The notes beneath the pieces were generated by a model that did not search any database, was not told the origin of the DNA, and saw only the letters and a list, made by a program, of their open reading frames with translations. From NCBI RefSeq assembly GCF_003711565.1, contig NC_079534.1, positions 9,653,991 through 9,717,990 on the forward strand: a stretch of 64,000 nucleotides of DNA, given 5' to 3'. This document shows positions 5,651-56,702 of the stretch, one piece after another. The number at the start of each line of letters is the position of its first letter. Positions within the stretch are counted from its first letter, which is position 1. A program made the position numbers and the translations under genes. The DNA is from Takifugu flavidus (lineage: Eukaryota).

Positions 5651-8600
5651 ACAGTCTCTAGAAGTGCGTTTTTTCACTTGAGAAACATCAGAATCAGAAT
5701 CAGATTTATTGCCATTGTTCATGTAATACACAGTATTACACAAACTTTGTCTTTTGAATTTGTCTTGGTGAGACGCTGCGACATTCAACATAAAGAAGAC
5801 CACACTAGAATAAGATAAATAAAATAAAAATAAGACATATATACAGTATATACATAAATAGTAAGTGGTAAGAGGTAAGTGGTAAGAAATAGTGCAGGTC
5901 AATGCAGGATGTGATGTATTGTTCGTGAGTCCGACTGGCTGCTGTACATGGTGCTTAAGTGATAAGTCACTTGGTGTTCAGCAGCCTGATGGCAGAGGGG
6001 AAGAAGCTGTTCATGTAGCGGGAGGTTTTGGTCCGAATGGACCGTAGTCTCCTGCCTGAGGGGAGGGGGGAAAACAGTCCGTGACCAGGGTGGGAAGGGT
6101 CGGCCGTGATCCGACCTGCACACCTCCGGGTCCTGGAGATATACAGGTCCTGGATGGATGGAAGCCTGCAGCCGATCACCTTCTCGGCAGCGCGCACGAC
6201 GCGCTGCAGCCTCAGTCTGTCCCTGACAGTGGCACCAGCAAACCACACGGTGATGGAGGAGGTGAGGATGGATTCGATGATGGCCGTATAAAACTGCGCC
6301 AACATCCTGGGAGGCAGTTTGAGCTTCCTCAGCTGCCGTAGAAAGAACATCCTTTGCTGGGCCTTCTTGATGAGGGAGCTGATGGTTGGCTCCCACTTAA
6401 GGTCCCGGGTGATGGTGGTGCCCAGGAAGCGGAAGGAGTCCGCGATGGTGATGGGGGCGTCCATGAGGGCAAGGGGGGGCAAAGGGGCTGTGACTTTCCT
6501 GAAGTCCACAGTCATCTCCACTGTCTTCTGAGCGTTCAGCTGCAGGTTGTTGTGTCCGCACCAGGACACCAGTCGAGCCACCTCCCTCCTGTAGGCGGTC
6601 TCATCGCCATTGGAGATGAGCCCGATGAGGGTGGTGTCATCCACAAACCTGATCAGCTTGACAGACTGGTGGCTTGAGGTGCAGCAGTTAGTGTGCAGGG
6701 AGAAGAGGAGGGGGGAAAGTACACAGCCCTGGGGTGATCCGGTGCTGATGGTGACGGAGTCCGAGACAGTCTTCCCCAGCCGCACATACTGCCTCCGATC
6801 CGTCAGGAAGTGAGTGATCCACCTGCAGAGGGAGTCAGGCACACTAAGCTGGGACAGCTTGTCCTGTAGCAGAGCGGGGCGGATGGTGTTGAATGCAGAG
6901 CTGAAGTCCACGAACAGGATCCTCGCGTAGGTTCCCGGGGAGTCCAGATGCTGCAGGATGGAGTGAAGGGCCAGGTTGACCGCGTCGTCCACAGATCTGT
7001 TGGCTCTGTAGGCGAACTGCAGTGGATCCAGGAGGGGGGTGGTGATGGACTTGAGGTGTGGCAGGATCAGGCGCTCTAAGGACTTCATGACTACAGAGGT
7101 GAGTGCCACAGGTCTGTAGTCGTTAAGCCCGGTGATCCGTGGCTTCTTGGGGACAGGGACGATGGTTGAGGTTTTGAGGCAGGCTGGCACCTGGCACGAC
7201 TCCAGGGAGGAGTTGAAGATGTCTGTGAAGACAGGAGTCAGCTCCTCTGCGCAGTGCCTCAGGGTGGAGGGAGACACGCCGTCCGGGCCAGGGGCCTTGC
7301 GCGGGTTCAACCTGGCGAACTGCCTGCGCACATCCTGTTCACTGATGGTGAATGAAGGGGGGGAGGAGGGGGGAACTGGTGGTAAGTGATGGGGGGGGGG
7401 GGACTGATGGTGAGTGGAGGGGGGGGGGGGAGGAGGGGACTGCCTTTGATGGAGTGAGGTCCATGGGGGCAGTGGCACTGGGGGGAGGGGAGGTGTTGGG
7501 CATGGCTGACGAGGTGTCAAAGCGGGCATAGTGGAGGGACAGACTCTGACAAAGGGCTTTGTCGTCCTGACCCTTTGAAGCCTGAGGCCTGTAGTCGGTG
7601 ATCTGCCTCAGGCCTCTCCACACAGAAGCAGAGTCGTTAGCAGTAAACTGCTGCTGAAGTTTCTCCGAATACACAGATTTAGCTCTCCTCAGTTCCTTGC
7701 TAAACCGGTATTTGGCCTCTCTGTAGCAGTCTCTGTCTCCACTTTTCAGCGCTGCTTCCTTTTCTTTCCTGATCTGTCTGAGTCTCGGTGTGAACCAGGG
7801 CTTGTCATTGGAATAACTCACCCTAGTGCGCGTTGGTAGAATGCGCTCCTCACAAAAGTGGATATATGAGGTCACAGTGTCCGTGTACTCATCCAGATCA
7901 TGTGTGGCCCCTTTAAACATGTCCCAGTCAGTTGTATCCAGGCACGTGCGCAGCTCCTCCACAGCCTCACTGGTCCATCTCTTCGTGGTGCTCACGGATG
8001 GTTTTGTTAGTTTAAGTTTCTGTCTGTATGTGGGGATCAGGTGGACCATCACGTGATCAGACAGTCCTAGCGCAGCACGGGGGATGGCCCGATACGCGTC
8101 CTTCACTGTGGTGTAGCAGTGATCCAGCGTGTTCTCTGCTCTGGTGGGGCATTTGATGAACTGTTTGTACCTGGGGAGCTCGTAACTCAGGTTGCTCTGA
8201 TTAAAGTCACCAAGCACGATAACCAGAGCGTCGGGATGGGTCCGCTCCACTTGTTGAATACAGTCCGCGAGCGTGCGCTGAGCCTCGCGCACGTCCGCGT
8301 CTGGCGAGATGTAAACAGAGGCCAGAATGAATGAAGCGAACTCACGCGGAGAATAGAAGGGTCTGCAGTTGATGAAGAGGTATTCCAAAGCAGGAGAACA
8401 GTGCTGAGAGATCACAGTCACATCAGTGCACCAGTCGCTGTTGATGTAGAAGCAGACTCCACCGCCTGCTCTCTTGCCAGAGAGCGCCAGGTCGCGGTCG
8501 GCACGGAACAGCTGGAATCCCTCGAGGAGGAGCGCGCTGTCCGGTGTCTCTTTCCTGAACCAGGTTTCAGTGAAGCAGAGAACACACGAGGTGGAGAAGT

Positions 8601-8990
8601 CTTTAATCCGCATCAGCAACTTCAGCTCGTCCATTTTGTTGCAAAGTGAGTTGGCGTTGGACAGAAAGATCCCAGGCAGCGCCGTGCGCGAGCCTCTCCT
8701 GCGTAGTCTCGCCAGGGCACCGGCCCGTCTTCCTCTCCTCCGCCGTCTCACCTTTTGGGCCAAAAAGTAAACCAGGTCGGCTGCAGGAGCCAGAAAAACT
8801 GGAAGTAAGTCCGTGGGGGTGAGAGTCCTGATGTTTAGTAGCTCTTCACGGGTGTAAGAGCAGGCAGACACACAGTTAACAAACAAAAATAGACAAACAA
8901 GAACGCAGCAAGACACCAAGGCGACCGCTCTGGGCGCCATTTGACAAACATCACAAAGATCAGGAAGCTCCTGATGCGGCATGATGCTGA
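5650..8990 (-). mobile_element. LINE-B, a CR1/L2-clade-like non-LTR retrotransposon with AP endonuclease + RT ORF2, frameshifted
   Basis: Minus ORF 7339-8982 (APE endonuclease: ...LCFTETW...GGGVCFYIN...) and 5967-7529 (RT: YRPVALTSVVMKSLERL...FVDDTTLIGLI..., tail ...SFFPSAIRLLN). 3' UTR 5650-5966 with short tandem repeats. Confidence 0.8.
5967..8982 (-). pseudogene. LINE-B ORF2 (endonuclease + reverse transcriptase), split into two overlapping frames by homopolymer G runs near 7380-7445
   Basis: ORF track: 547-aa EN part and 520-aa RT part overlap in different frames around poly-G tracts. Confidence 0.75.
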
Positions 8991-10070
8991 AAAGTTAGTC
9001 CATGCATTTGTTACTTCCAGGCTGGACTATTGTAATTCTTTATTATCAGGGTGTCCAAACAACTCTTTAAGAAGCCTCCAGCTGATCCAAAATGCTGCAG
9101 CCAGAGTTCTGACAGGTATTGACAAAAGAGATCCCATTACTCCTGTACTGGCGTCTCTTCATTGGCTGCCCGTTAAATTTAGAATAATTTTTAAAACCCT
9201 TCTTTTGACCTACAAGGTCCTCAGAGGCTTAGCTCCATCCTACCTGGAGGAGCTAGTGATACCTTACCAGCCCAATAGACCGCTCCGCTCTCAGAATGCT
9301 GGTCTACTTGTGGTTCCCAGAGTTTAGGAGTAGAATGGGGGTCCGAGCATTTAGCTACCAGGCCCCCCTGCTATGGAACCAGCTCCCTGTCCAGGTACGG
9401 GAGGCTGACTCCATTGCTACTTTTAATATTAGGCTTAAAACCTACCTCTTTGAAAAAGCTTATTGTTACTGATTCTGTAGTTCCAGTTACTATTATAGAC
9501 AGACAAATTAGCATACTTAGGGGGTTGTCTAATCATTAGGCTAACATCTTAGCTGTGCTGTTATAGGCCAAGGCTGCCGGGGTCCGGAAACATGATCACC
9601 TGACAGGCCTCTGTCACCCCACTGGGTCATGGTTTCCTCTCCTCTCCTTTCCTCCTCCTCATCAAGCAGACTAGTTATGCTGATTCTTGTGTAGTTTTTC
9701 TGCTTATCTCCCCCACATCCCTTCTGTATCCATTTACAGGTATCGCCGCCTTCGGAGCTGCATGATGACCTCCGGCCCCACTTTCCCGCTGTATAAATAG
9801 TGTATTTTTGTATGTGTTTCGGTGCTCTGTGCCCGTCCTCTCTCCTTTCCTCTCCGCTCCCTCTCCCTCTCCCTCTCCTCTCTCTCTACCAGCAGGAGGG
9901 TCCCCCTACATGAGCCTGGTCCTGCAAAAGGTTTCTTCCTGTTAAAGGGGAGTTTTTCCTTGCCACTGTTGCTTGTCTGGGGTTCGGCCCGGGGATTCTG
10001 GAAAGCGCCTTGAAACAATTTTGATTGTAAAAGACGCTATATAAATAAAGATTGAGATTGATTGATTAAC
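8941..10070 (+). mobile_element. LINE-A' 3' fragment (+ orientation): RT C-terminal tail + 3' UTR, inverted relative to the copy at 2400-3657
   Basis: ORF 8941-9327 (TNITKIRKL...AEKLVHAFVTSRLDYCNSLLSGCPN...SLHWLPVKFRI...) is near-identical to minus ORF 3280-3630. 9300-9640 matches the reverse complement of 2950-3280. Confidence 0.85.
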
Positions 10071-42071: not shown

Positions 42072-42773
42072 CTACAGCTCCCCCTTATTTTTCACATTTA
42101 TTATATTTTTAATTGTTTGCAAGGCCATGGTTCTCAACCGGAAAAAGGTGGAGTGCCTTCTCCGGGTCAAGGAGGAGATCCTGCCCCAAGTGGAGGAGTT
42201 CAAGTACCTCAAGTTCAAGTAGAGATTGACAGGCGGATCGGTGCGGCATCCGCAGTAATGCGGACTCTGCACCGGTCCGTAGTGGTGAAGAGAGAGCTGA
42301 GCTGAAAGGCGAAGCTCTCGATTTACCGGTCGATCTTCGTTCCTACCCTCACCTATGGTCATGAGCTTTGGGTAATGACCGAAAGAACAAGATCACGGGT
42401 ACAAGCGGCCGAAATGAGCTTCCTTCATAGGGTGGCTGGGCTCTCCCTTAGAGATAGGGTGAGAAGCTCTGCCATCCGGGAGGAGCTCGGAGTAGAGTCG
42501 CTGCTCCTCCGTGTTGAGAGGAGCCAGATGAGGTGGCTTGGGCATCTAGTTAGGATGCCCCCAGGACGCCTCCCTGGTGAGGTGTTCAGGGCATGTCTCT
42601 CCGGTAGGAGACCCCCGGGAAGACCCAGGACACATTGGAGAGACTATGTCTCTCGACTGGTCTGGGAACGCCTGGGGATCCCTCCGGATGAGCTGGAGGA
42701 GGTAGCTGGGGAGAGGGAAGTCTGGGCTTCTCTCCTTAGGCTGCTGCCCCCGCAACCCGACCCCGGATAAGCG
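42072..42773 (+). mobile_element. LINE-C 3' fragment (5'-truncated RT C-terminus: ...RIGAASAVMRTLHRSVVVKRELS...ERSQMRWLGHLVRMPPGRLPGEVFR...) in a tep1 intron
   Basis: ORF 42375-42770 is about 90% identical to the C-terminus of the minus-strand RT at 51656-52362. Followed by a (GGAT)n tail. Confidence 0.85.
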
Positions 42774-42800
42774 GTAGAGGATGGATGGATGGATGGATGT
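42774..42800. repeat. (GGAT)n microsatellite, 3' tail of the LINE-C fragment
   Basis: ggatggatggatggatgg directly after the RT stop. Confidence 0.85.
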
Positions 42801-46810: not shown

Positions 46811-48879
46811 ATCACTCCCAAGTTATTAATTAATCCTAGACCAAAACATGGCTCCAGTTCATTTGAAAGCCTGACTCTTGGCATCACCCATCTGAACTGG
46901 AAGACAGAAAAGCCACTTTTGTTTGTAGTTGTATATCGGCCCCCTGCTGGGTCACATTCAGAGTTCCTTTCTGAGTTCTCTGATTTCTTATCTGACTTGG
47001 TCCTTAGAACAAACAAAGTCATTATTATTGGACACTTTAATATCCTTCTAGACGTAAATGACAGCTTTAGACATGGCTTCATTTCATTACTTGAGTCAGT
47101 TGGTTTCCTCCAGCAGATAAACCAACCAACTCATAGCTTCAACCACACCTTAGATCTAGTTGTGACTTATGGTGTTGAGGTAGAACATGTGTCAGTGTTC
47201 CCTCGGAACCCACTCCTGTCAGATCATTCATTGATAACTTTTATATTTATGATTAAGGATTCTTCTATCCTCAGAACACAGTCTTACTATAGCAGATGTC
47301 TTTCAGATAATGCTGTAGCTAAGTTTAAGGAAGCAATCCCTGCGTTGATCCCAGGATCACTGTGTTTCCCCAGGGATCAATCATTATAATCTTAGCCCTG
47401 CTGAGGTTGACTCTATTGCTGAAGGTGCAGCAACCTCACTGAGAATCACGCTTGATTCTGTTCCCCCCCTGAAAAAGAAAATAGTAAATCAGAGGAGGTG
47501 TGCCCCCTGGTATAATTCACATATCAGGACCCTCAAGCAGAAAGCGCGCAGACTAGAAAGGAAGTGGCATTCTTGTAAAATAGACAGCTATCATGTAGCC
47601 TGGAAAGACTGTCTATTAGTTTACAAAAAGGCCCTCCGTAAGGCTAGAACAGCTTGTTTTTCTTCTTTAATTGAGGAAAATAAGAACAACCCCAGGTTTC
47701 TTTTCAGCACTGTGGCCAAATTAAGTCACAGTGTTTTAGATCCACGTATCCCTTCTTCCCTTAGTGGTGAAGACTTCATGGGCTTCTTCACTGATAAAGT
47801 TCTAGCTATCAGAGAAAAAGCTAACCAGGCCATCCCAACTGGACCATCACCAGATGTGCTGACTGTGGGAACATACAGGTTCTCCAACGGGCCCTTAAAC
47901 TCCTTCACTCCTATATATTTTTCTGAGGCGTCCTTGCTAATTCAGAAATCCAAGTCCACCACGTGTCTCTTAGATCCCATCCCAACACACCTGTTGAAGG
48001 ATGTTTTACCATTGATAGGCAGATCTATCCTGGACCAGATCAATTGTTCTTTAGTGACAGGTTATGTACCCCGGTCCTACAAGGTGGCAGTGATTAAGCC
48101 GTTGCTTAAAAAAACATCACTGGATCCTGATGTCTTAGCAAATTACAGGCCGATATCCAACCTTCCTTTTATCTCTAAAATTCTTGAGAAGGTGGTGGTC
48201 ACTCAGTTACTGGAGCACCTGCAGAGAAACAGCCTGTTTGAGATGTTTCAGTCAGGCTTTAGAGCTCATCACAGTACAGAAACAGCACTTCTTAAAGTTA
48301 CTAATGATCTTCTTATCGCTTCAGATCATGGACTGGTCTCTATGCTGGTTCTGCTGAACCTCAGTGCTGCTTTTGATACAGTTGATCACAGCATCCTGTT
48401 ACACAGACTGGAACATGTGATTGGGATTAAAGGGACAGCACTAGACTGGTTTAGATCATATTTATCTGATAGATACCAGTTTGCTCATGTCCATGGTGTT
48501 CCCTCCTCATACAGTAGGGTTAGCCATGGAGTTCCACAAGGTTCTGTAGTTGGACCAATCCTCTTCACCTTGTACGTGCTTCCCTTAGGGAACATTATTC
48601 GGCAGCATGGGATACATTTTCATTGTTATGCTGATCACATCCAGCTTTATTTATTCATGAAACCAGAGAAGACAGAGAAGTTAGTGAAGCTTCAGACCTG
48701 TCTTAAAGACATAAAGTCCTGGATGTTTTCAAATTTCCTCCTCCTTAACTCAGGAAAAACTGAGGTCATGGTGTTTGGTCCTGAACCTCTCAGGGATAGA
48801 TTAGATCACATGATCACTCTAGATGGTATCTCATTAACATATAGTCTCTCTGTGAGGAATATAGGAGTAACTTTTGACC

Positions 48880-48969
<90 letters not shown>

Positions 48970-49020
48970 CTATATATATATATATATATCTATATATATC
49001 TATATATATATATATATAAC
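46810..49020 (+). mobile_element. LINE-A copy C (+), 5'-truncated: endonuclease remnant + RT; 3' tail replaced by a microsatellite
   Basis: ORF 46703-47389 (APE-like ...LLFVVVYRPPAGSHSEFLSEFSDFL...IIIGHFNILLD) and ORF 47712-49019 (RT: ...YRPISNLPFISKILEKVV...FHCYADHIQLYLFMKPEKTEKLVKLQTCLKDIKSW...NIGVTFDQNLS), then (CT)n. Confidence 0.85.
48880..49020. repeat. (CT)n then (TA)n compound dinucleotide microsatellite replacing the LINE-A copy C tail
   Basis: Direct read (ctctctct... tatatata...). Confidence 0.95.
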
Positions 49021-49059
49021 TTCTCTCCAATTGTTAATTTACACCATGTTTTATATTTT

Positions 49060-49470
49060 CTTCAAATTCATATTGTGTATGTGCGCGTGCGCCCTGGTGT
49101 GATGCGAATCTCGAGCGCTCAGGTGTGCGACAGCCACTCCCTCTCTTCAGGTACAAACAGGTAAGACTAGTATCTGACGAAGGAAGATCTGCGTCAGGTC
49201 TCAGGGACATCTGATTTTCTACTTACCAAGAACCCTTTCAGGAAAACGGCGTTGAATCGCCGAGAAACAGTTTGAATCTCTCTGAGTACTCTGAGAACTG
49301 ACACAGAGCAGCAAATGGTGAGTTTGCGGCGTTAACGGACTAACATTGATTGAAAACATGAAATTGGGCGGACAGGAGACGTGTTTAATGACGTAACTGT
49401 TGGGCAGGATCGATACGATAGCCTGGATTTGGATCTGGAGTGTGAAGAAACAGCTGAAGCTGTGAGTATA
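49060..49470. promoter_or_regulatory. CpG-rich segment; candidate promoter / 5' exons of the downstream modular gene
   Basis: Local CpG clustering (gcgcgtgcgccc, tcgagcgctc, gcggcgttaacgg). Donor-like ...ttcag|gtacaaacag|gtaaga near 49150-49165. Confidence 0.4.
49242..49317 (+). CDS. Modular gene: putative 5' UTR exon ending in the start codon (…cagagcagcaaATG|gtgagt); only the last 3 nt are coding
   Basis: Acceptor ccctttcag|g at 49239-41; ATG 49315-17 immediately followed by GTGAGT. Joins in frame with the next phase-0 exon to give MDKRGVFKGLFKK... Confidence 0.35.
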
Positions 49471-50183
49471 TCCAAATGGAACTTTAGCTGGCGGACGGAA
49501 GTTTTCTTGTGTTGACAGTCTGTTAGCTGCTCCCTAAAACCGCTAAAACAACATTTTATATTAGTCGGGGAGACAAACGGCTAAAATGGTTTCAATTTAA
49601 GCCTGCTGAGAGAAGCAGAAGTTGTCAGAAGTCAACGCTTCTCAGAGCTAAATTTAGACATGGTTTTTGGTTTTCCCGTTCCTTTCTTTTCTCCCTTACT
49701 TGTTGTATCTAATCTGTTACAATCAGTATTTCCTCTGTTTGCCTTACAGAAACAGGTGCCACAAAAATATGAAGAAATATTCATACATAACATGCGTTCC
49801 ATGCAGATATTTTTAGTCATTGGTACATACAGTAGATGTTTTGGTGTATGTATTATAAGAATTTGAGGAAAATAAATATACACATTATTGTTAGATCCAA
49901 CTTTATTGTCATTGCACATGTCCCAGGTACAAAGCAGTGAAAGGAAGATTGTCATGTGAGACTTGGATAGTTCATGGACCGCCATCTAATATAAATAATT
50001 ACATTAAGAACACAAATACACCATGGACCAAAATATAGACAATCTGACTGAATATAGCAAAAAGGTGTTCATCAAAGTTTTACATCTATTTTGTTTTCTT
50101 ATTTTGACTGTCTGCTCAATCACGTTTTAGGGGCGGGACAAATGTCACTATGTTTGAATATCAGTATTTTCCACACATTTCAG

Positions 50184-50249
50184 GACAAAAGGGGTGTTTT
50201 TAAAGGGCTTTTTAAGAAAACAACCAAAGCTGTTCAAGACCAACCGCAG
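50184..50249 (+). CDS. Modular gene exon (DKRGVFKGLFKKTTKAVQDQPQ); basic amphipathic GxFxGxFKK module
   Basis: Acceptor cacatttcag|gac; donor CAG|GTTTGT; phase 0/0. Confidence 0.6.
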
Positions 50250-50830
50250 GTTTGTAACAGTTTTCTTTAACCTTATGGACTTTTTAATAATGTCATTTAC
50301 TTCAGATATATAATAAAATATAATTTTATTAACTTTAAGTACACTCATGTAGTAATCAGTGATCTTCAGTTATTGTACATTAGGTAGGCTATTCAAGTGT
50401 CCCATCCTGTTCATACTGTAGGTACCTGATCCGTCATCTGTCATTGGACAATGAAACAGAAACACAGCCACTGATTTATCTTATATGTGTGTAGACTTGA
50501 AACTAGAGAATATGTGTCCATCTGATGCAAAAGATCAGATGTGGACTCTTAACTAGAATGGCCCCTCTGCTTGTCGCTGGAATTTGCCAGATTCGGTGCA
50601 TCAAAGATAACATACGGAGTAATATAACTTGAAAATCTAATAAAATGATTTGTTTATATCTTTGTCATAGTAGAACATGGACTTAGAAGATCCTGAACTG
50701 TCTGCCAGTTCCATCAGCTTAATTAGCAATAAATCAACAACAGTGAGTTTTTTCTGCTGCAGAGAAACTTTTCCTTAGAAATGGAACCATTCTGATTTTT
50801 GAAACCTGAACTGCCCTTTTGTGTCTGCAG

Positions 50831-50908
50831 GAAAAATCAAGTACAAGTGTTCTTGGTGGGATTTTAAGAAGGTCACCTAAACCAGGAAATGTCCGACGGC
50901 TTTCACGG
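50831..50908 (+). CDS. Modular gene exon (EKSSTSVLGGILRRSPKPGNVRRLSR)
   Basis: Acceptor gtgtctgcag|gaa; donor CGG|GTGAGA; phase 0/0; contains basophilic kinase consensus RRLS. Confidence 0.6.
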
Positions 50909-50990
50909 GTGAGACAAAATCTCCTTTTATGTGAGTTTAAAAAAAAAAAAAAAAGTCATCTGCAGAATACAGTCAGTAATTATGTTTCAG

Positions 50991-51053
50991 GATCTGTTGG
51001 AAAGTGAGATGACAGCAAGCAATGACAGTCTGTCTGAAACCAGCAGTGCAAAA
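50991..51053 (+). CDS. Modular gene exon, duplication copy 1 (DLLESEMTASNDSLSETSSAK)
   Basis: Acceptor tatgtttcag|gat; donor AAA|GTGAGC; paralogue at 54447-54509. Confidence 0.65.
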
Positions 51054-51159
51054 GTGAGCTTCATCACTCAATTCTTTCATTAGAATATGGAAACTGCAAT
51101 GACATAATAATGTTTTTGCTCCTAAATATATGTGTGAATATGACTTTTTTTTTTTAAAG

Positions 51160-51231
51160 GAATCAATGGGAAGGTTTAAAGGAATGTTTAAAAAAAACAC
51201 AAAGCTTCTTGAGGCAAAGACACAATCAGAG
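51160..51231 (+). CDS. Modular gene exon, copy 1 (ESMGRFKGMFKKNTKLLEAKTQSE)
   Basis: Acceptor (t)n taaag|gaa; donor GAG|GTAATA; paralogue at 55145-55216. Confidence 0.65.
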
Positions 51232-51321
51232 GTAATAACCATCTTTTACTGTGGGTTATGTCATTAAGATAATCAATTTAATGAAATCCTGACATTAATT
51301 GCTTTTATTTTTCACCTTCAG

Positions 51322-51372
51322 GATGACTTGTTAGCACTCTGCAGTGCTGACAGTCTTTCAGTGAATAAAAAG
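51322..51372 (+). CDS. Modular gene exon, copy 1 (DDLLALCSADSLSVNKK)
   Basis: Acceptor caccttcag|gat; donor AAG|GTGAGA; paralogue at 55304-55354. Confidence 0.65.
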
Positions 51373-51432
51373 GTGAGATTTGGAGAAGCTTTCCTTCACT
51401 ATGAGCATATTTCAATAACTCATGTGTTACAG

Positions 51433-51510
51433 GAGGCTGAAGGGATGTTCACAGGGTTGTTTTAAAAAAAAAAAAAAAAAAACACTCATGGAGCGGGGAC
51501 ACAAGCCCAG
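51433..51510 (+). pseudogene. Modular gene exon, copy 1 of the EA.GMFTGLFKK... module. Reads EAEGMFTGLF* because an expanded homopolymer (T4A19 vs TTTAAAAAGAAAAAG in copy 2) introduces a stop
   Basis: Direct comparison with the intact paralogous exon 55417-55485. Splice sites retained (ttacag|gag ... cccag|gttgct). Confidence 0.55.
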
Positions 51511-51601
51511 GTTGCTGCTGCATTCTTGTTTGTTCAATAAACCTCTAGTTATTCAGAAAAGATAACTGTATTAATGAGAAGATATCTTTTGTCTGCCACA
51601 G

Positions 51602-51648
51602 CCAGCGAGCTCTCTGGCAGCAATAATCTCACCAAAAACAACAACGAG
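51602..51648 (+). CDS. Modular gene exon, copy 1 (…SELSGSNNLTKNNNE), shortened relative to paralogue 55572-55640. A LINE starts 8 nt after its donor
   Basis: Acceptor gccacag|cc; donor GAG|GTGAAC. Confidence 0.45.
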
Positions 51649-51655
51649 GTGAACT

Positions 51656-54360
51656 CGATGAGGTGTTTCTGAGTATGTCCTGAACACCTCACCAGGGAGG
51701 CGTCCAGGGGGCATCCTGACTAGATGCCCAAGCCACCTCATCTGGCTCCTCTCAATGCGGAGGAGCAGTGGCTCTACTCCGAGCTCCTCCCGGACAGCAG
51801 AGCTTCTCACCCTATCTCTAAGGGAGAGCCCAGCCACCCTTTGGAGGAAGCTCATTTCAGCCGCATGTACCCGTGATCTTGTTCTTTCGGTCATTACCCA
51901 AAGCTCATGACCATAGGTGAGGGTAGGAACGAAGATCGAGTGGTAAATCGAGAGCTTCGCCTTTTGGCTCAGCTCTCTCTTCACCACTACGGACTGGTGC
52001 AGAGTCCGCATTACTGCGGATGCCGCACCGATCCGCCTGTCAATCTCCTGCTCCATTCTTCCCTCACTCCTGAACAAGACCCCGAGGTACTTGAACTCCT
52101 CCACTTGGGGCAGGATCTCTTCCTTGACCTGGAGAAGGCACTCCACCTTTTTCCGGTTGAGAACCATGGCATCGGATTTGGAGGTGCTGATTTTCATCCC
52201 AGGCACTTCACACTCGGTGGCGAACCGATCCAGTGATCGTTGGAGGTCACGGGCCGATGACGCCAACAGGACCACATCATCTGCAAAGAGCAGAGACCCG
52301 ATCCTGAGGTCACCAAGCCGGACCCCCTCAACACCATGACTGCACCTAGAAATTCTATCCATAAGTTATGAACAGAATTGGTGACAAAGGGCAGTCCTGG
52401 CGGAGACCAACCCTCACTGGAAACGAGTTTGACTTACTGCCAGTAATGCGGACCAAACTCTGATACCGATTGTACAGGGAGCGGACGGCCCGTATCGGGG
52501 CCCGGCACCCCATACTCTCGGATGACCCCCCACAGGACCCCCCGAGGGACACAGTCGAATGCCTTCTCCAAATCCACAAAACACATGCGGACTGGTTGGG
52601 CAAACTCCCATGCACCCTAAAAGACCCTGCTGAGGGTGTAGAGCTGGTCCACCGTTCCACACCCAGGACGAAAACCACATTGCTCCTCCTGAATCCGAGG
52701 TTCGACTATCCGGCGGACCCTCTTCTCCTGAATAGACCTTACCAGGGAGGCTGAGGAGTGTGATCCCCCTATAGTTGGAACACACCCTCCGGCTTCCCTT
52801 CTTAAAAAGAGGGACTACCACCCCGGTCTGCCAATCCGGCAGCACCTTCCCCGATGTCCACGCCATGTTGCAGAGTCGAGTCAACCACGACAGCCCTACA
52901 ACATCCAGAGCCTTAAGGAACTCTGGGCGGATCTCATCCACCCCCGGGGCCTTGCCACCGAGGAGTTTTTTGACTACCTCGGCAACGTCAGCCCCGGAGA
53001 TACGAGAGCCTGTTTCCAGGTCCCCAGGCCCTGCTTCCTCACTGGGAGGCACATTGGTGGGATTAAGGAGGTCTTCGAAATATTCATTCCACCGATCCAC
53101 AATATCCGGAGTTGAGGTCAGCATCACACCATCGCCACTATACACAGGGTTTACAGTGCACTGCTTCCCCTTCCTCAGACGCCGGATGGTGGTCCAGAAC
53201 CTTTTTGAAGCCGTCCGGAAGTCATTCTCCATGGCCTCACTGAACTCTTCCCATGCCTGGGTCTTTGCCTCAGCAACCGCTGTAGCTGCACTTCGCTTGG
53301 TCTGCCGGTACCTATCAGCTGCCTCAAGAGTCCCACTGGCCAGTAAGGCCCGATATGACTCCTTCTTCAGCCTAATGGCATCCCTCACCGCTGGTGAGAC
53401 AAGCACAGAGGTCCAATAACAAAACACCATTCGGGTTCAGATCAGGGGGGCCGTTCTTCCCAATCACACCTCTCCAGGTCAAACTGTCTTTGCCACCGTG
53501 AGCATTGAAGTCACCCAGGATGACGAGGGAGCCCCCAGAAGGAGCACTCTCCAGCACTCCCTCTAAGGACTCCAAAAAGGGTGGATACACTGAACTGCTG
53601 TTTGGGTCATAGGCACAAACAACAGTCAGGATCTGTCCCCCCACACGAAGGCGAAGGGAGGCTACCCTCTCATCCACCGGGGTAAACTCCAACATACAGG
53701 CACTGAGACTCCAGAGGGGTAGAGAGTCCAACCCCTCTCGAGAAGACCGGTTCCAGAGCCCTTGCTGTGCGTTGAGGTGAGGCCAACTGTGTCTAGTCGG
53801 AACTTCTCAACCTTGCGCACCAGCTCAGGCTCCTTTTCCACCAGAGAGGTGACATTCCATGTCCCTAGAGCAAGTTTATGCCGGATCAGACCGCCAAGGT
53901 CCGTGCCTTCGGCCGCTACCCAACACACAATGCACCCGATCCCCTTGGCCCCTTCTGCAGGTGGTGAGCCCACGTGAAAGGGGTCCCATGTTGCCTCTTT
54001 GGGCTGTGCCCGGCCGGACTCCATGGGCAGATGGTCCGGCCATCAGGCGCTCGCCAACGTGCCCCACCCCCAGGCCTGGCTCTTGGAGGGGGCCCCGGTG
54101 ACCCACATCCGGGCAAGGGAAACTTGGAACCAATATTGTTTCTCGTCATTTGGGGGTGATGGGCTACGCTTTGTCTGATCCCTCACCTAGGACCTGTTTG
54201 CCATGGGTGGCCCTACCAGGGGCATAAAGGCCCAGACAACAGAACTCCTAGGATCACTGGGACACGCAAACCCCTCCACCACCCCTCCTGGGCTACCACC
54301 TTATCGTGGTGGAGGGGATTGCGTGTCCCAATGACACCCCCACCTTCCTGGGCTACAAAA
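51656..54360 (-). mobile_element. LINE-C (minus strand, about 2.7 kb): AP-endonuclease + RT, 5'-truncated. Sits exactly between the two copies of the duplicated exon block
   Basis: Minus ORFs 53662-54024 and 53372-53731 (APE: ...[10 protein letters not shown]...), 52414-53430 and 51571-52362 (RT: ...FADDVVLLASSARDLQRSLDRFATECEVPGMKISTSKS...). 3' portion matches the 42072-42773 fragment. Confidence 0.85.
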
Positions 54361-54446
54361 ATCTCCTTTTACTTGAAAAAAGAAGTCATATAAAGAATAC
54401 AATTAGTAATCCAGTGCAATGAATATTAATTGAAATTATGTTTCAG

Positions 54447-54509
54447 GATCTGTTGGAAAATGAGTTGACAGCAAGCAATTACAGTTTGTCTGAAACCAGC
54501 AGTGCTAAA
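54447..54509 (+). CDS. Modular gene exon, duplication copy 2 (DLLENELTASNYSLSETSSAK)
   Basis: Acceptor tatgtttcag|gat; donor AAA|GTGAGT. Confidence 0.65.
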
Positions 54510-55144
54510 GTGAGTCTCATTACTCAAGTCTTCCATTAGAGTATTTAACAATAACACCTGATTGTTTGGCTTCTTTACTCTTTAAAACACATGAAACAGC
54601 AGAATCACACTTGTTCAGCACAGCCCGAGGATTAAAAGTTACAATAGTCCATAAACGTATATATGTCGTTCAAATTAATTTTTACAGCACTTTTCAGACT
54701 TCAGCAACTTAAAGGATTTTACAGTGATAAAGCACAGCATAATGAAAAAATGCACACAGTTAAAAGTAAAGAACAATCCTTCCTTCCTCGCATTCTCCAC
54801 AATTGAAATAACAGGCACAAACACGTACATATACCCGGGCACATGCTTGCACATAATAAGCTGATATGGTAACAAAAATGTAAAAATGCCTTTAAAAAAC
54901 TTAAAAAAAATTCATACCGCTCTCCTCAGATAATAACTTGTCACCTATAATTGGTCACAATGTGTTGAGAAGGGTGTGTATTTTAAAGGTGTGTTGATGC
55001 TATTGTGGCTGTTTGGAAGCATTGGCAGAACCTGCAGACATCAACAGTTCAGTAGGAATGTTGGTCATTGTTTGAGTTTATATCGGTCTGTTTCACAAAG
55101 TACACAATCTTTTGTTTTATGCCATGACATTTTTTTTTTTTAAG

Positions 55145-55216
55145 GAATCAACAGGTGTGTTTCTGGGAATTTTTAAAAAAAACTCAAAACTTCTCGAGGC
55201 AAAGACACAATCAGAG
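55145..55216 (+). CDS. Modular gene exon, copy 2 (ESTGVFLGIFKKNSKLLEAKTQSE)
   Basis: Acceptor (t)n taag|gaa; donor GAG|GTAAGA. Confidence 0.65.
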
Positions 55217-55303
55217 GTAAGAGTCATCTTTTACATGTGTTATATCATCAAGATAAAAAGGAAATACAGTGCTGACAATTTGACCTTTATTTTTCACCTT
55301 CAG

Positions 55304-55354
55304 AATGACTTGTTAGTACTCGGCAGTGCTGACAGCCTTGCGGTGAATAACAAG
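55304..55354 (+). CDS. Modular gene exon, copy 2 (NDLLVLGSADSLAVNNK)
   Basis: Acceptor caccttcag|aat; donor AAG|GTGAGC. Confidence 0.65.
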
Positions 55355-55416
55355 GTGAGCTTTGGAGAAGCTTTCCTTCACTATTAGCACATTTCAACAA
55401 CTTTCATATGTTACAG

Positions 55417-55485
55417 GAGGCTGGAGGGATGTTCACAGGGTTGTTTAAAAAGAAAAAGTCTCATGGAGCAGGGACACGAGCCCAG
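55417..55485 (+). CDS. Modular gene exon, copy 2 (EAGGMFTGLFKKKKSHGAGTRAQ)
   Basis: Acceptor gttacag|gag; donor CAG|GTTGCT. Confidence 0.65.
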
Positions 55486-55571
55486 GTTGCTACTGCCTTT
55501 TTGTTTGTTCAACAAACCTCCAGTTATTTTGAAAGGATGACTGTATTAATGAGAAGATATCTTTCTTTCAG

Positions 55572-55640
55572 AACGATTCATCCGCAGCCAGCGAGCTCTC
55601 TGGCAGCAGTGATAATCTCAGCAAGAACAACAATGATGAG
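55572..55640 (+). CDS. Modular gene exon, copy 2 (NDSSAASELSGSSDNLSKNNNDE)
   Basis: Acceptor ctttctttcag|aac; donor GAG|GTGAAC. Confidence 0.65.
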
Positions 55641-56702
55641 GTGAACTCTTGTTTCTGTAATCATGTTTAACTACCAGCAAAATAAACCTTAAGTGATGTT
55701 GATTTTAACATTGACATATTTATTTTGATGAGAAAGGAGGAAATTTAGAGGTGTGTTTATGAAGAAAATAGTCAAATCTCAGTCCGTCTCTTTTATGAGA
55801 AGCTCTTGTGTGACATTGAATCAGGGCGGAATATGTTTTATTAATTTTTCAGAAAAAAATAAAGTGACTTAAAGCATTTGCACAACAAATTTGTGGTCCA
55901 GTTTAACTTATAGCATTTAATTTAACAGCAATTTCACAATTTAACTGATATGTGCATTGTTGAGTTCTGTTCATTTGCCATTAGATATCAGATTACAGTC
56001 CTGGACTTGTAGCTTTTTCAGATAAGGTGGTGGAGCCAGCAGCCAAAGAGGAGCTGCACCCTAATAAATGCATGCAGCTGTTCTTCATTAACTGAACACC
56101 AACAATGCTCCTGCCGACACCCTCGTCTGTGGCTCTCCTTTAAGTTTCTTATTTTTACCAAAGAGGGCTTCATTAAGTTCTTCCTGACCTATTTTGAGGG
56201 GGTCTAAGGTCAGAGTCGCAACTGTGTCCTATAGCTGATGATTAAAGCCCTCTGAGACAAACAATGTTTTGGCTCAAACTAAATTTTAGCTGATTTAATA
56301 GTGATGTGTAAAACTTTTTCCAGTTTGGGGTTCTGTGTTTGCTCCTATATAGTAGAGCTACGGAGCTGAAACATGGAGGAAAGTGAATCTACCACAGTAC
56401 AGACAGGATAATAGGGGTACAGAGACATTTGCAGTGCGGTCCTTGTTTTTGGATTTTGTAAAAAAAAGATTATGCCGTCTTTATTTATTTCTAAATTTAC
56501 CTCTGGTCAGTTTGCAGAAAGCCATATAGATCACATATAGATCCAGCACTGGACTGTGTGTGGACCACTGTCTGACTTAATGAGTTGTAATTTTATTGGT
56601 ACATGGAGGCACAAGTGGTCATTTTAATTACATTCCCAATAGATGCTTAAATGCTTACCATTATCTACTTTGCTCAGATTTTTTTTTTTTACATATTTAC
56701 AG

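Follow-up and report, generated by a model that had tools for sequence, protein, structure and literature searches.

All coordinates refer to the window, the whole 64,000-nt stretch of Takifugu flavidus DNA that was analyzed. The gene considered here is composed of short phase-0 exons, which belong to two alternating types (DLxxxxxSxxSLS and ExxGxFxGxFKK). As the exons are phase 0-0, any block of them can be duplicated or skipped in frame. One block of five exons is present in two copies (B1 and B2), and a LINE (LINE-C) resides between them. The features of the exon blocks are:

50831-50908, plus strand: exon ahead of B1, not duplicated (EKSSTSVLGGILRRSPKPGNVRRLSR); its donor precedes the left homology limit by 7 nt
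50916-51656, plus strand: block copy 1 (B1), five exon-like segments and introns, paralogous to B2; confirmed to 51482 by Logan contig L006
50991-51053, plus strand: B1 exon 1 (DLLESEMTASNDSLSETSSAK), 63 nt, phase 0-0
51160-51231, plus strand: B1 exon 2 (ESMGRFKGMFKKNTKLLEAKTQSE), 72 nt
51322-51372, plus strand: B1 exon 3 (DDLLALCSADSLSVNKK), 51 nt
51433-51510, plus strand: B1 exon 4, 78 nt, with an in-frame TAA at 51463-51465
51602-51648, plus strand: remnant of B1 exon 5, 47 nt left, out of frame, not a multiple of 3
54358-55648, plus strand: block copy 2 (B2), five exons, all intact, phase 0-0; covered by Logan contig L001
54447-54509, 55145-55216, 55304-55354, 55417-55485 and 55572-55640, plus strand: B2 exons 1-5, phase 0-0
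54545-55124, plus strand: B2 intron-1 DNA lacking a B1 counterpart, at least partly ancestral

B1 and B2 are co-linear direct repeats, alike in exons and introns. BLAST aligns 50978-51088 with 54434-54544 (90% identity, E 2e-38) and 51140-51656 with 55124-55648 (82% identity with gaps, E 5e-148). A segment-by-segment alignment yields 86 mismatches at 649 aligned sites (~87% identity), with 88.2% identity in exons and 85.4% in introns. This bears out the claim of an earlier note on this DNA that two paralogous, co-linear blocks exist and that their introns match as well. A similarity search of the window revealed no third copy. The limits given earlier (50909-51655 and 54361-55650) have to be shifted, while the shared motif on which they were based is real: AAAATCTCCTTTTA begins at 50916 in B1 and at 54358 in B2, and GAGGTGAACTC terminates at 51656 and 55648, respectively. 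Position 50909 is the G of the upstream exon's donor and not the block start. Both homology limits fall 7-25 nt past a splice donor.

All five exon pairs were found, with AG/GT boundaries except for the acceptor of B1 exon 5. Apart from the 47-nt remnant of that exon, every exon has a length divisible by three and phase-0 boundaries. The description of the blocks as paralogous exon by exon therefore holds for the five pairs as such, but B1 exon 5 cannot be spliced in frame and B1 exon 4 contains a stop. This TAA stands at the start of a 19-A run and occurs only in this assembly; Logan contig L006 has TTGTTT followed by at least 26 A, and no stop. In B1 exon 5, as compared with B2 and the outgroup, a deletion has removed the acceptor and the first codons. 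B1 is thus partly decayed, and B2 is fully intact. B2 intron 1 exceeds B1 intron 1 by ~580 nt. Part of the extra DNA (54963-55055) matches the outgroup contig L007 at 82% identity, which means that B1 has lost DNA here; an insertion into B2 intron 1 was rejected for this reason.

The contig L007, from a related species, lacks block exons 2-3. It has segments resembling exons 1, 4 and 5, which are open over 63, 69 and 66 nt and bounded by AG/GT, and its introns over the block region carry large indels. Because open reading frame, splice sites and phase are conserved in L007, we predict that the duplicated segments are real coding exons. No annotated protein matched the spliced block peptides or any ORF of the B1 region; the only matches were read-through ORFs on Logan contigs, and no other members were found in the Logan ORF clusters. 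The same gene has a second tandem duplication, of an exon pair (61599-61861 and 62276-62570), which is devoid of a LINE.

The features of LINE-C and of a related copy in the window are:

51657-51674, plus strand: 18-nt filler (GATGAGGTGTTTCTGAGT), non-LINE, between B1 and the LINE
51675-54281, minus strand: body of LINE-C, a putative Rex3-family LINE, starting at canonical position ~27 and stopping 205 nt before the family 3' end
54282-54342, plus strand: inverted LINE 5' extreme, canonical positions 1 to ~59, overlapping the body by ~32 nt
54343-54356, plus strand: 14-nt CCTTCCTGGGCTAC, a second partial copy of canonical positions 2-15, abutting B2
42121-42799, plus strand: same-family reference copy, 5'-truncated, ending in TAA-GCG-GTAGAG-(GATG)n, with a TTTGCAA target-site duplication (TSD)

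The ORFs of LINE-C are decayed. RVT_1 was detected above the Pfam cut-off (E 2.6e-7), and Exo_endo_phos and Exo_endo_phos_2 were weak and below it (E 2-3e-3). Among 2046 fish homologs of the reverse transcriptase, the best is from Takifugu (90%). Rex3 elements are RTE-related non-LTR retrotransposons that encode an apurinic-type endonuclease and, after it, a reverse transcriptase; their 3' terminus reads stop codon-GCG-(GAA)2-(GATG)n (PMC6274825). With traces of both endonuclease and reverse transcriptase, LINE-C is assigned to the Rex3 family, by match to its published description. Further family copies were taken from ENA contigs L002-L005, and two TSD-flanked ones (L002 and L003) were used to set the canonical 5' end. 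The 3' ends of these two are similar to the TAA GCG GTAGAG (GATG)n of the window copy, and family copies carry TSDs of 7-13 nt. The reference copy at 42121-42799 is 90% identical to LINE-C; it served to show the 3' truncation and was used for dating.

LINE-C is a non-canonical insertion. Its body is frameshifted, and ~460 nt are missing from its interior near 53397. Unlike family copies, it is missing the final 205 nt and the (GATG)n tail. At its other end, plus-strand positions 1 to ~59 lie beside a minus-strand body that starts from ~27, with an overlap of ~32 nt, which is the arrangement of a twin-priming 5' inversion. The inverted piece pairs with 54254-54281 as a hairpin. Snap-back self-priming of the LINE body was considered as the origin of this hairpin and rejected, as the loop is inverted and fits the twin-priming topology. 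A check of the LINE flanks, as proposed earlier, disclosed no short TSD: the longest common flank word has 6 nt, a length reached in 995 of 2000 shuffles. LINE-derived sequence extends over 51675-54356 in all. Thus, the element does lie between the copies, as had been claimed, but it does not fill 51656-54360 precisely, given the 18-nt filler on the left. The filler resembles the end of the B blocks, GATGAGGTG[aactcttg]TTTCTG, and could represent either an insertion copied from a template or B1 continuing in degenerate form. A weak likeness of the B2 3' flank to this filler may reach 55665.

Independent support comes from two Logan contigs, both from run SRR31175812. L001 corresponds to 54288-55807 (98.4%) and crosses the junction between the LINE 5' end and B2; L006 corresponds to 48989-51482 (97.5%) and ends within the poly-A of B1 exon 4. 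These contigs cover B1 (to 51482), B2 and the LINE 5'/B2 junction, with the interior of the LINE and its left junction with B1 lying outside. A 263-aa junction ORF, used as a query for the left junction, retrieved only other LINE copies. The close relative SRR31175812 carries the LINE, while in the distant relative SRR31175887, the block is apparently single. Neither of these two relatives yielded a LINE-free allele or a species with the duplication alone.

For dating of LINE-C, 464 sites common to LINE-C, one same-genome copy and four outgroup copies were used. Private substitutions of LINE-C number 12-15 (2.6-3.2%), of which 7-9 are at non-CpG sites (1.7-2.2% there). A further 25 changes are common to LINE-C and its same-genome relative and are therefore older than the insertion. 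The blocks have diverged by 6.2-6.6% per lineage (86/649 sites). This results in a block/LINE rate ratio of 1.9-3.6 (one-sided P 1e-4 to 0.03), from small samples (464 LINE sites, 400-649 block sites). When only the outgroup-polarised B1 branch is considered, the difference has a P of just ~0.03. The blocks are AT-rich and of low complexity, so alignment noise could inflate their divergence; upon omission of the two worst introns, it is still ~5.8% per lineage (hand arithmetic on the segment table). Being rich in GC and CpG, the LINE would be expected to evolve faster than the blocks, if anything. The amino-acid differences between LINE-C and a Takifugu consensus (15/217, many of them CpG-type R->Q/H) agree with this dating. 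As private divergence is lower in LINE-C, the duplication is most likely the older event, and LINE-C would be about one third to one half its age.

What the data show, namely a duplication, the structure of the LINE ends and an age gap between element and copies, is on balance probably best combined in two events: an ordinary tandem duplication, in a gene prone to duplicating exons, came first, and a non-canonical LINE insertion between the copies followed, with loss of a spacer. A block of at least five exons would have been tandemly duplicated after this lineage and that of the L007 species had separated. Later, at ~1/3 to 1/2 of the age of the duplication, a nearly full-length Rex3-family LINE would have integrated between the copies. 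The plus-strand DNA end on the B1 side may have primed inside the LINE RNA, resulting in 3' truncation and the lack of a tail. The minus-strand end on the B2 side may have copied the extreme 5' end of the RNA, resulting in the inverted 5' piece with its twin-priming topology. No TSD would have formed. The spacer between the two breaks would have been lost, together with the original duplication junction and possibly more duplicated DNA. This could have happened during integration itself or through a subsequent deletion, whose repair left a short templated filler. If the spacer was lost, copy homology stops at the LINE ends by construction and not because the LINE made the duplication. The "exact" fit of the LINE is thus most simply attributed to spacer loss at insertion. 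We infer this loss and the one-step mechanism, the spacer itself not being seen. LINE-C has no TSD and has atypical ends, and L1 insertions that lack a TSD and delete target DNA are an established outcome (PMC7058536; bioRxiv 10.1101/2024.12.14.628481).

This two-event reading leaves to chance that both homology limits sit 7-25 nt after a splice donor. The [copy][LINE][copy] geometry is equally expected of a LINE-bridged duplication, which counts against an older duplication with a later LINE.

Such a bridged event is the first alternative. Opposite-strand breaks ~0.75 kb apart in a single-copy block would both be extended on one Rex3 RNA (twin priming), and fill-in would duplicate the five exons, leaving the LINE as a bridge within a "giant target-site duplication". 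We consider this unlikely, though it accounts for several features. Homology ends 0-20 nt from the LINE on both sides: it starts at 50916/54358, with the LINE ending at 54356, and it ends at 51656 (possibly 51677), with the LINE starting at 51675. Strand polarity fits, as the B1 plus-strand end leads into antisense LINE and the B2 minus-strand end into antisense of the inverted 5' piece. That the LINE has kept its extreme 5' terminus speaks for the B2 junction as an original retrotransposition junction. Tandem duplications of 1-10 kb with an L1 at the junction are known and have been read as large TSDs, and insertions lacking a 3' end are likewise known (10.1101/2024.12.14.628481; PMC7058536). 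Against this stands the age: a LINE that made the duplication should be as old as the copies, but in these small samples, its private divergence is 2-3.6 times below the per-lineage divergence of the blocks. There is neither a tail nor a primary junction of the endonuclease type, but a 205-nt 3' truncation and an 18-nt filler. Moreover, the gene duplicates exons elsewhere without LINEs. The earlier note had read the locus as a concrete example of TE-linked exon-block amplification; this is disfavored by the absence of tail and TSD, the youth of the LINE, the LINE-free duplication and the exon pair missing from L007. What stands of its retroelement-associated duplication is the LINE between the copies and a compatible geometry, while age, 3' junction and the LINE-free duplication speak against it. 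Its second option, in which the breakpoint or its vicinity was used for insertion afterwards, has the better support.

Another, improbable reading is a chance hit. The duplication unit would be ~0.75 kb, with an inter-copy intron of ~100 nt; a canonical Rex3 insertion would have hit a site only a few nucleotides from the junction, and a later small deletion would have removed 3' end, tail and TSD. The dating makes the LINE younger than the duplication, the filler (51657-51674) has the look of a repair product, and a junction intron of ~100 nt is plausible as the gene's other introns have 60-105 nt. However, two independent events and a positional coincidence are required. The latter is estimated at ~10-20% even given an insertion in that intron, and at ~0.1% for any of the LINEs in the window.

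An assembly artefact (a collapsed or mis-joined repeat) is very improbable: the LINE interior and the left junction are outside the independent contigs, which break in the poly-A run and the LINE hairpin, but the copies differ by 13%, unlike an assembler's duplicate, and an independent read set contains both copies and the LINE 5'/B2 junction at ~98% identity. Unequal crossing-over between LINE copies flanking the block (non-allelic homologous recombination) is practically negligible, with nothing in its favor beyond the presence of a LINE; it would leave a LINE upstream of B1 and downstream of B2, but no LINE-C-like sequence adjoins the blocks there, the only other match in the window being 42124-42594.

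The evidence points away from a duplication made by the LINE and toward ordinary biology. The locus is an example of a fish gene, unannotated and evolving fast, whose size changes by gain and loss of whole phase-0 exons. It also calls for caution, since a transposon "exactly" between repeat copies can be the by-product of a deletion-associated insertion; element and copies need to be dated relative to each other before a causal claim is made. If the LINE did make the duplication, this would be a clean natural case of retrotransposition creating coding exons via a very long TSD. To our knowledge, this process is known from cancer genomes and hardly documented in evolution. With a rather small chance, should the dating mislead, the locus would be a fixed, retroelement-bridged duplication in a teleost germline, with Rex3 twin priming across breaks 0.75 kb apart and a "giant TSD" that added five in-frame exons. 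It would then be the evolutionary counterpart of L1-bridged duplications, so far described mainly in human tumors and cell clones.

Several known systems are similar in part. The family of LINE-C resembles Rex3 of teleosts (PMC6274825) in its ORF for endonuclease and reverse transcriptase; as in Rex3, its copies terminate in stop-GCG-(GAA)2-like-(GATG)n and are flanked by TSDs whose length varies, while LINE-C itself has lost the tail. In L1 twin priming, as far as it is described where Ostertag and Kazazian (2001) are cited (10.1101/2024.12.14.628481), the 5' segment likewise has the opposite orientation to the 3' body, and the two overlap briefly where they join. Unlike in that description, the inverted piece of LINE-C has only ~60 nt and starts from the very first nucleotide, with an extra 14-nt copy and neither TSD nor tail. 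Small tandem duplications bridged by L1 ("large TSDs"), seen in human cancer genomes and in clones of L1-expressing cells (10.1101/2024.12.14.628481; PMC7058536) also have a non-LTR element between direct host copies. They may lack the poly(A) end after resection, and inverted pieces of the twin-priming type occur, as at LINE-C. Here, however, the element is a germline Rex3-type LINE of a fish, the copies, with 13% divergence, are old and the LINE is seemingly younger, so the causal link that defines L1-bridged events is unsupported. L1-mediated target-site deletions (PMC7058536 and references therein) share the lack of a TSD, the atypical junctions and the loss of host DNA between the breaks, a loss that we infer here; they usually retain the poly(A) end, whereas LINE-C has lost its 3' end. 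Finally, tandem duplication of symmetric (phase 0-0) exons occurs in repeat-built genes, as it does here, with a second such duplication 6 kb downstream. Compared with such genes, nothing is unusual at this locus except for the LINE in the inter-copy intron.

The unnamed repeat-exon gene contains a five-exon block in two copies, B1 (upstream, 50916-51656) and B2 (downstream, 54358-55648). Self-comparison of the window revealed two co-linear direct repeats, which match at 50978-51088 versus 54434-54544 (90% identity, E 2e-38) and at 51140-51656 versus 55124-55648 (82% with gaps, E 5e-148), and no third block copy in the whole 64 kb. The paralogous blocks described in an earlier note are thus confirmed, with slightly shifted coordinates. 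According to piecewise alignment, homology starts at the motif AAAATCTCCTTTTA (50916 and 54358), 7 nt past the splice donor of the preceding exon, which is not duplicated and ends at 50908, and has a clear right limit after GAGGTGAACTC (51656 and 55648). The copies differ at 86 of 649 aligned sites. Identity is 88.2% in exons and 85.4% in introns, so that an excess of exon conservation is not visible between the copies. Intron 1 of B2 has ca. 580 nt without a B1 counterpart. Part of this DNA (54963-55055) is matched at 82% by L007, a contig from a more distant relative (SRR31175887), which serves as outgroup. The DNA is therefore at least partly ancestral, and a deletion has occurred in intron 1 of B1.

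The window has a eukaryotic, fish-like character; its exons are short, and it contains introns and several retroelements. In the repeat-exon gene, two exon types alternate (DLxxxxxSxxSLS and ExxGxFxGxFKK). The exons in and near the block are as follows:
50184-50249, 50674-50742 and 50831-50908: further upstream exons
B1 exons 1-3: intact
B1 exon 4: 78 nt, with an in-frame TAA where a run of 19 A begins
B1 exon 5: acceptor and first codons lost, 47 nt left, out of frame
B2 exons 1-5: all intact (63, 72, 51, 69 and 69 nt), AG/GT boundaries, phase 0-0

The shortfall of B1 exon 5 is 11 nt versus B2 and 21 alignment columns versus the outgroup. At the exon 4 stop site, a contig from a close relative (L006, run SRR31175812) has TTGTTT and then 26 or more A, and TAA is absent. 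Because it is missing from this closely related read set, the stop may be private to the present assembly or a homopolymer-edge error. The poly-A (Lys-run) tract itself (TTTT and 19 A, which gives TAA, at 51458-51482; TTT and at least 26 A without a stop at L006 1-30) represents either a length/sequence polymorphism or a homopolymer error.

L007 retains segments similar to exons 1, 4 and 5, with splice sites and open frames of 63, 69 and 66 nt, while its introns have large indels. Judged by these retained frames and splice sites, the block segments appear to be real coding exons. Protein searches with spliced block peptides and B1-region ORFs found no annotated protein that matches the block exons. 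In L007 (reverse complement, 1-2515), the block consists of exon 1, a ca. 1.3-kb intron, exon 4 and exon 5, followed by B2-type downstream sequence; the exon 2-3 pair is wholly absent. The start of the contig and the left limit of block homology are no more than ca. 6 nt apart, for which a low-complexity run may be responsible. The same gene has a second local duplication, which covers two exons (61599-61861 and 62276-62570; 75-87% identity, period ca. 680-710 nt) and has no retroelement between the copies. Each copy comprises two exons (..SDDENLRDEDLGQQEEKKSGESKDKTDE / ..SDDEELRNEDAAHQEEKESEEMSKDRTDQ, followed by an DKSEKTQETQSLYASCK-like one). As this duplication and the lack of exons 2-3 in L007 illustrate, exons are gained and lost in this gene with no LINE taking part.

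B1 and B2 are separated by LINE-C, a minus-strand LINE of the Rex3 family. Repeats and other features of the window are listed below:
51675-54281 (-): LINE-C, with frameshifted ORFs, reverse transcriptase matches and weak endonuclease matches
42121-42799: second family copy, directly upstream of plus-strand exons (ca. 42.83-43.2 kb) encoding WD40/beta-propeller-like sequence (weak Pfam hits)
47349-48899 (+), then 48880-49020: LINE of a different family, lacking nucleotide similarity to LINE-C; open frame of 517 aa, matching RVT_1 strongly (E 2.8e-32) and leading into a (CT)n/(TA)n microsatellite shortly before the repeat-exon gene's putative first exons
58228-59057 (-): decayed Tc1/mariner-type transposase (HTH_Tnp_Tc3_2 E 1.4e-14, DDE_3 E 6.7e-8) in the intron downstream of B2
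6001-10000: GC-rich (51-58% versus ca. 38% elsewhere), possibly a further retroelement or CpG island

LINE-C has 2046 fish reverse transcriptase homologues (best: Takifugu copies, 90% amino acid identity), which align to the junction ORF only where it is LINE-derived. The copy at 42121-42799 is a textbook insertion: 5'-truncated, with the tail TAA-GCG-GTAGAG-(GATG)n and a TTTGCAA target-site duplication (TSD). Family copies on two ENA contigs (L002, L003) have the same tail and TSDs. This tail is the published Rex3 signature (PMC6274825). Against this standard, neither end of LINE-C is normal. On its 3' side, it ends inside the ORF, 205 nt before the end of the family, and lacks the tail. It is separated from B1 by an 18-nt filler (51657-51674) that is similar to the nearby block end, GATGAGGTG...TTTCTG. 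At the other end, the LINE-C body starts at canonical position ca. 27 and directly adjoins canonical positions 1 to ca. 59 in inverted orientation (54282-54342), followed by another partial copy of 14 nt (positions 2-15) and then B2. The earlier note had proposed a check of the flanks for TSDs; no short TSD flanks LINE-C, the longest common word having 6 nt, a length reached in half of the shuffles. In the interior, ca. 460 nt are deleted near 53397. The missing sequence is present in L003 (3100-3563), between the endonuclease and reverse transcriptase regions. The match of another copy, L004, to LINE-C starts (L004 5285) at this same point, which could be a recurrent breakpoint or reflect subfamily structure.

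The B1-LINE-B2 layout looks exactly like a TSD of ca. 0.75 kb, and both junctions have a strand polarity compatible with twin priming. For human L1, LINE-bridged small tandem duplications are regarded as large TSDs, and insertions without their 3' end are on record (bioRxiv 10.1101/2024.12.14.628481; PMC7058536). L1-mediated deletions without TSD are equally established (PMC7058536). The same end anatomy is expected when a LINE integrates without TSD between older copies and the DNA between the break points is lost; homology then ends at the LINE ends by construction. What discriminates the two readings is whether LINE and duplication have the same age.

For the LINE, 464 sites were compared between LINE-C, the same-genome copy at 42121-42799 and four outgroup copies (L002-L005). 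Both window copies share 25 differences from the outgroup consensus, which are thus subfamily changes older than the insertion. Substitutions private to LINE-C number 12, with 3 more being ambiguous (2.6-3.2%); only 7-9 of them are non-CpG (1.7-2.2%). In LINE-C, 15 of 217 residues deviate from a consensus built from 20 Takifugu proteins, many of them through R->Q/H changes of CpG type. Divergence between B1 and B2 is 13.3% (12.3% non-CpG), or 6.2-6.6% per lineage. With L007 as outgroup (400 sites), 62 differences fall on the outgroup branch, 16 are private to B1 and 25 to B2, and 9 sites differ in all three. B1 and B2 are sister sequences; therefore, the duplication postdates the split from the L007 lineage, and both branches are long. 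The block versus LINE rate ratio is 1.9-3.6 (conditional binomial tests, one-sided P 1e-4 to 0.03). Substitutions should accumulate in the GC-/CpG-rich LINE no more slowly than in the AT-rich block. A clearly lower age of LINE-C relative to the duplication is therefore most likely; sample sizes are small, however, and the dating is the weakest step of the argument.

On balance, we lean towards an ordinary tandem duplication of the exon block as the older event. A twin-primed, 3'-truncated, non-canonical Rex3 insertion would later have occurred between the copies and would have removed the spacer. A LINE-bridged duplication matches layout and junction polarity but conflicts with the probably younger age of the LINE, and we consider it doubtful. 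It is improbable that a canonical insertion landed at the junction by chance and was followed by a small deletion. An assembly artefact is highly implausible: contigs from the independent run SRR31175812, with ca. 1% substitution divergence from the window, cover B1 up to 51482 (L006, 48989-51482) and B2 with the LINE 5'/B2 junction (L001, 54288-55807), and the 13% difference between the copies argues against an assembler's duplicate. LINE-C-like sequence does not flank the blocks, which rules out unequal crossing-over between LINE copies.

The duplication and the LINE between its copies thus stand, with small coordinate corrections. The interpretation as TE-linked amplification is only partly supported: the geometry fits, but the dating places the LINE after the duplication, and the gene duplicates exons elsewhere without a LINE. 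Both main mechanisms are already known, and this case is a further instance.
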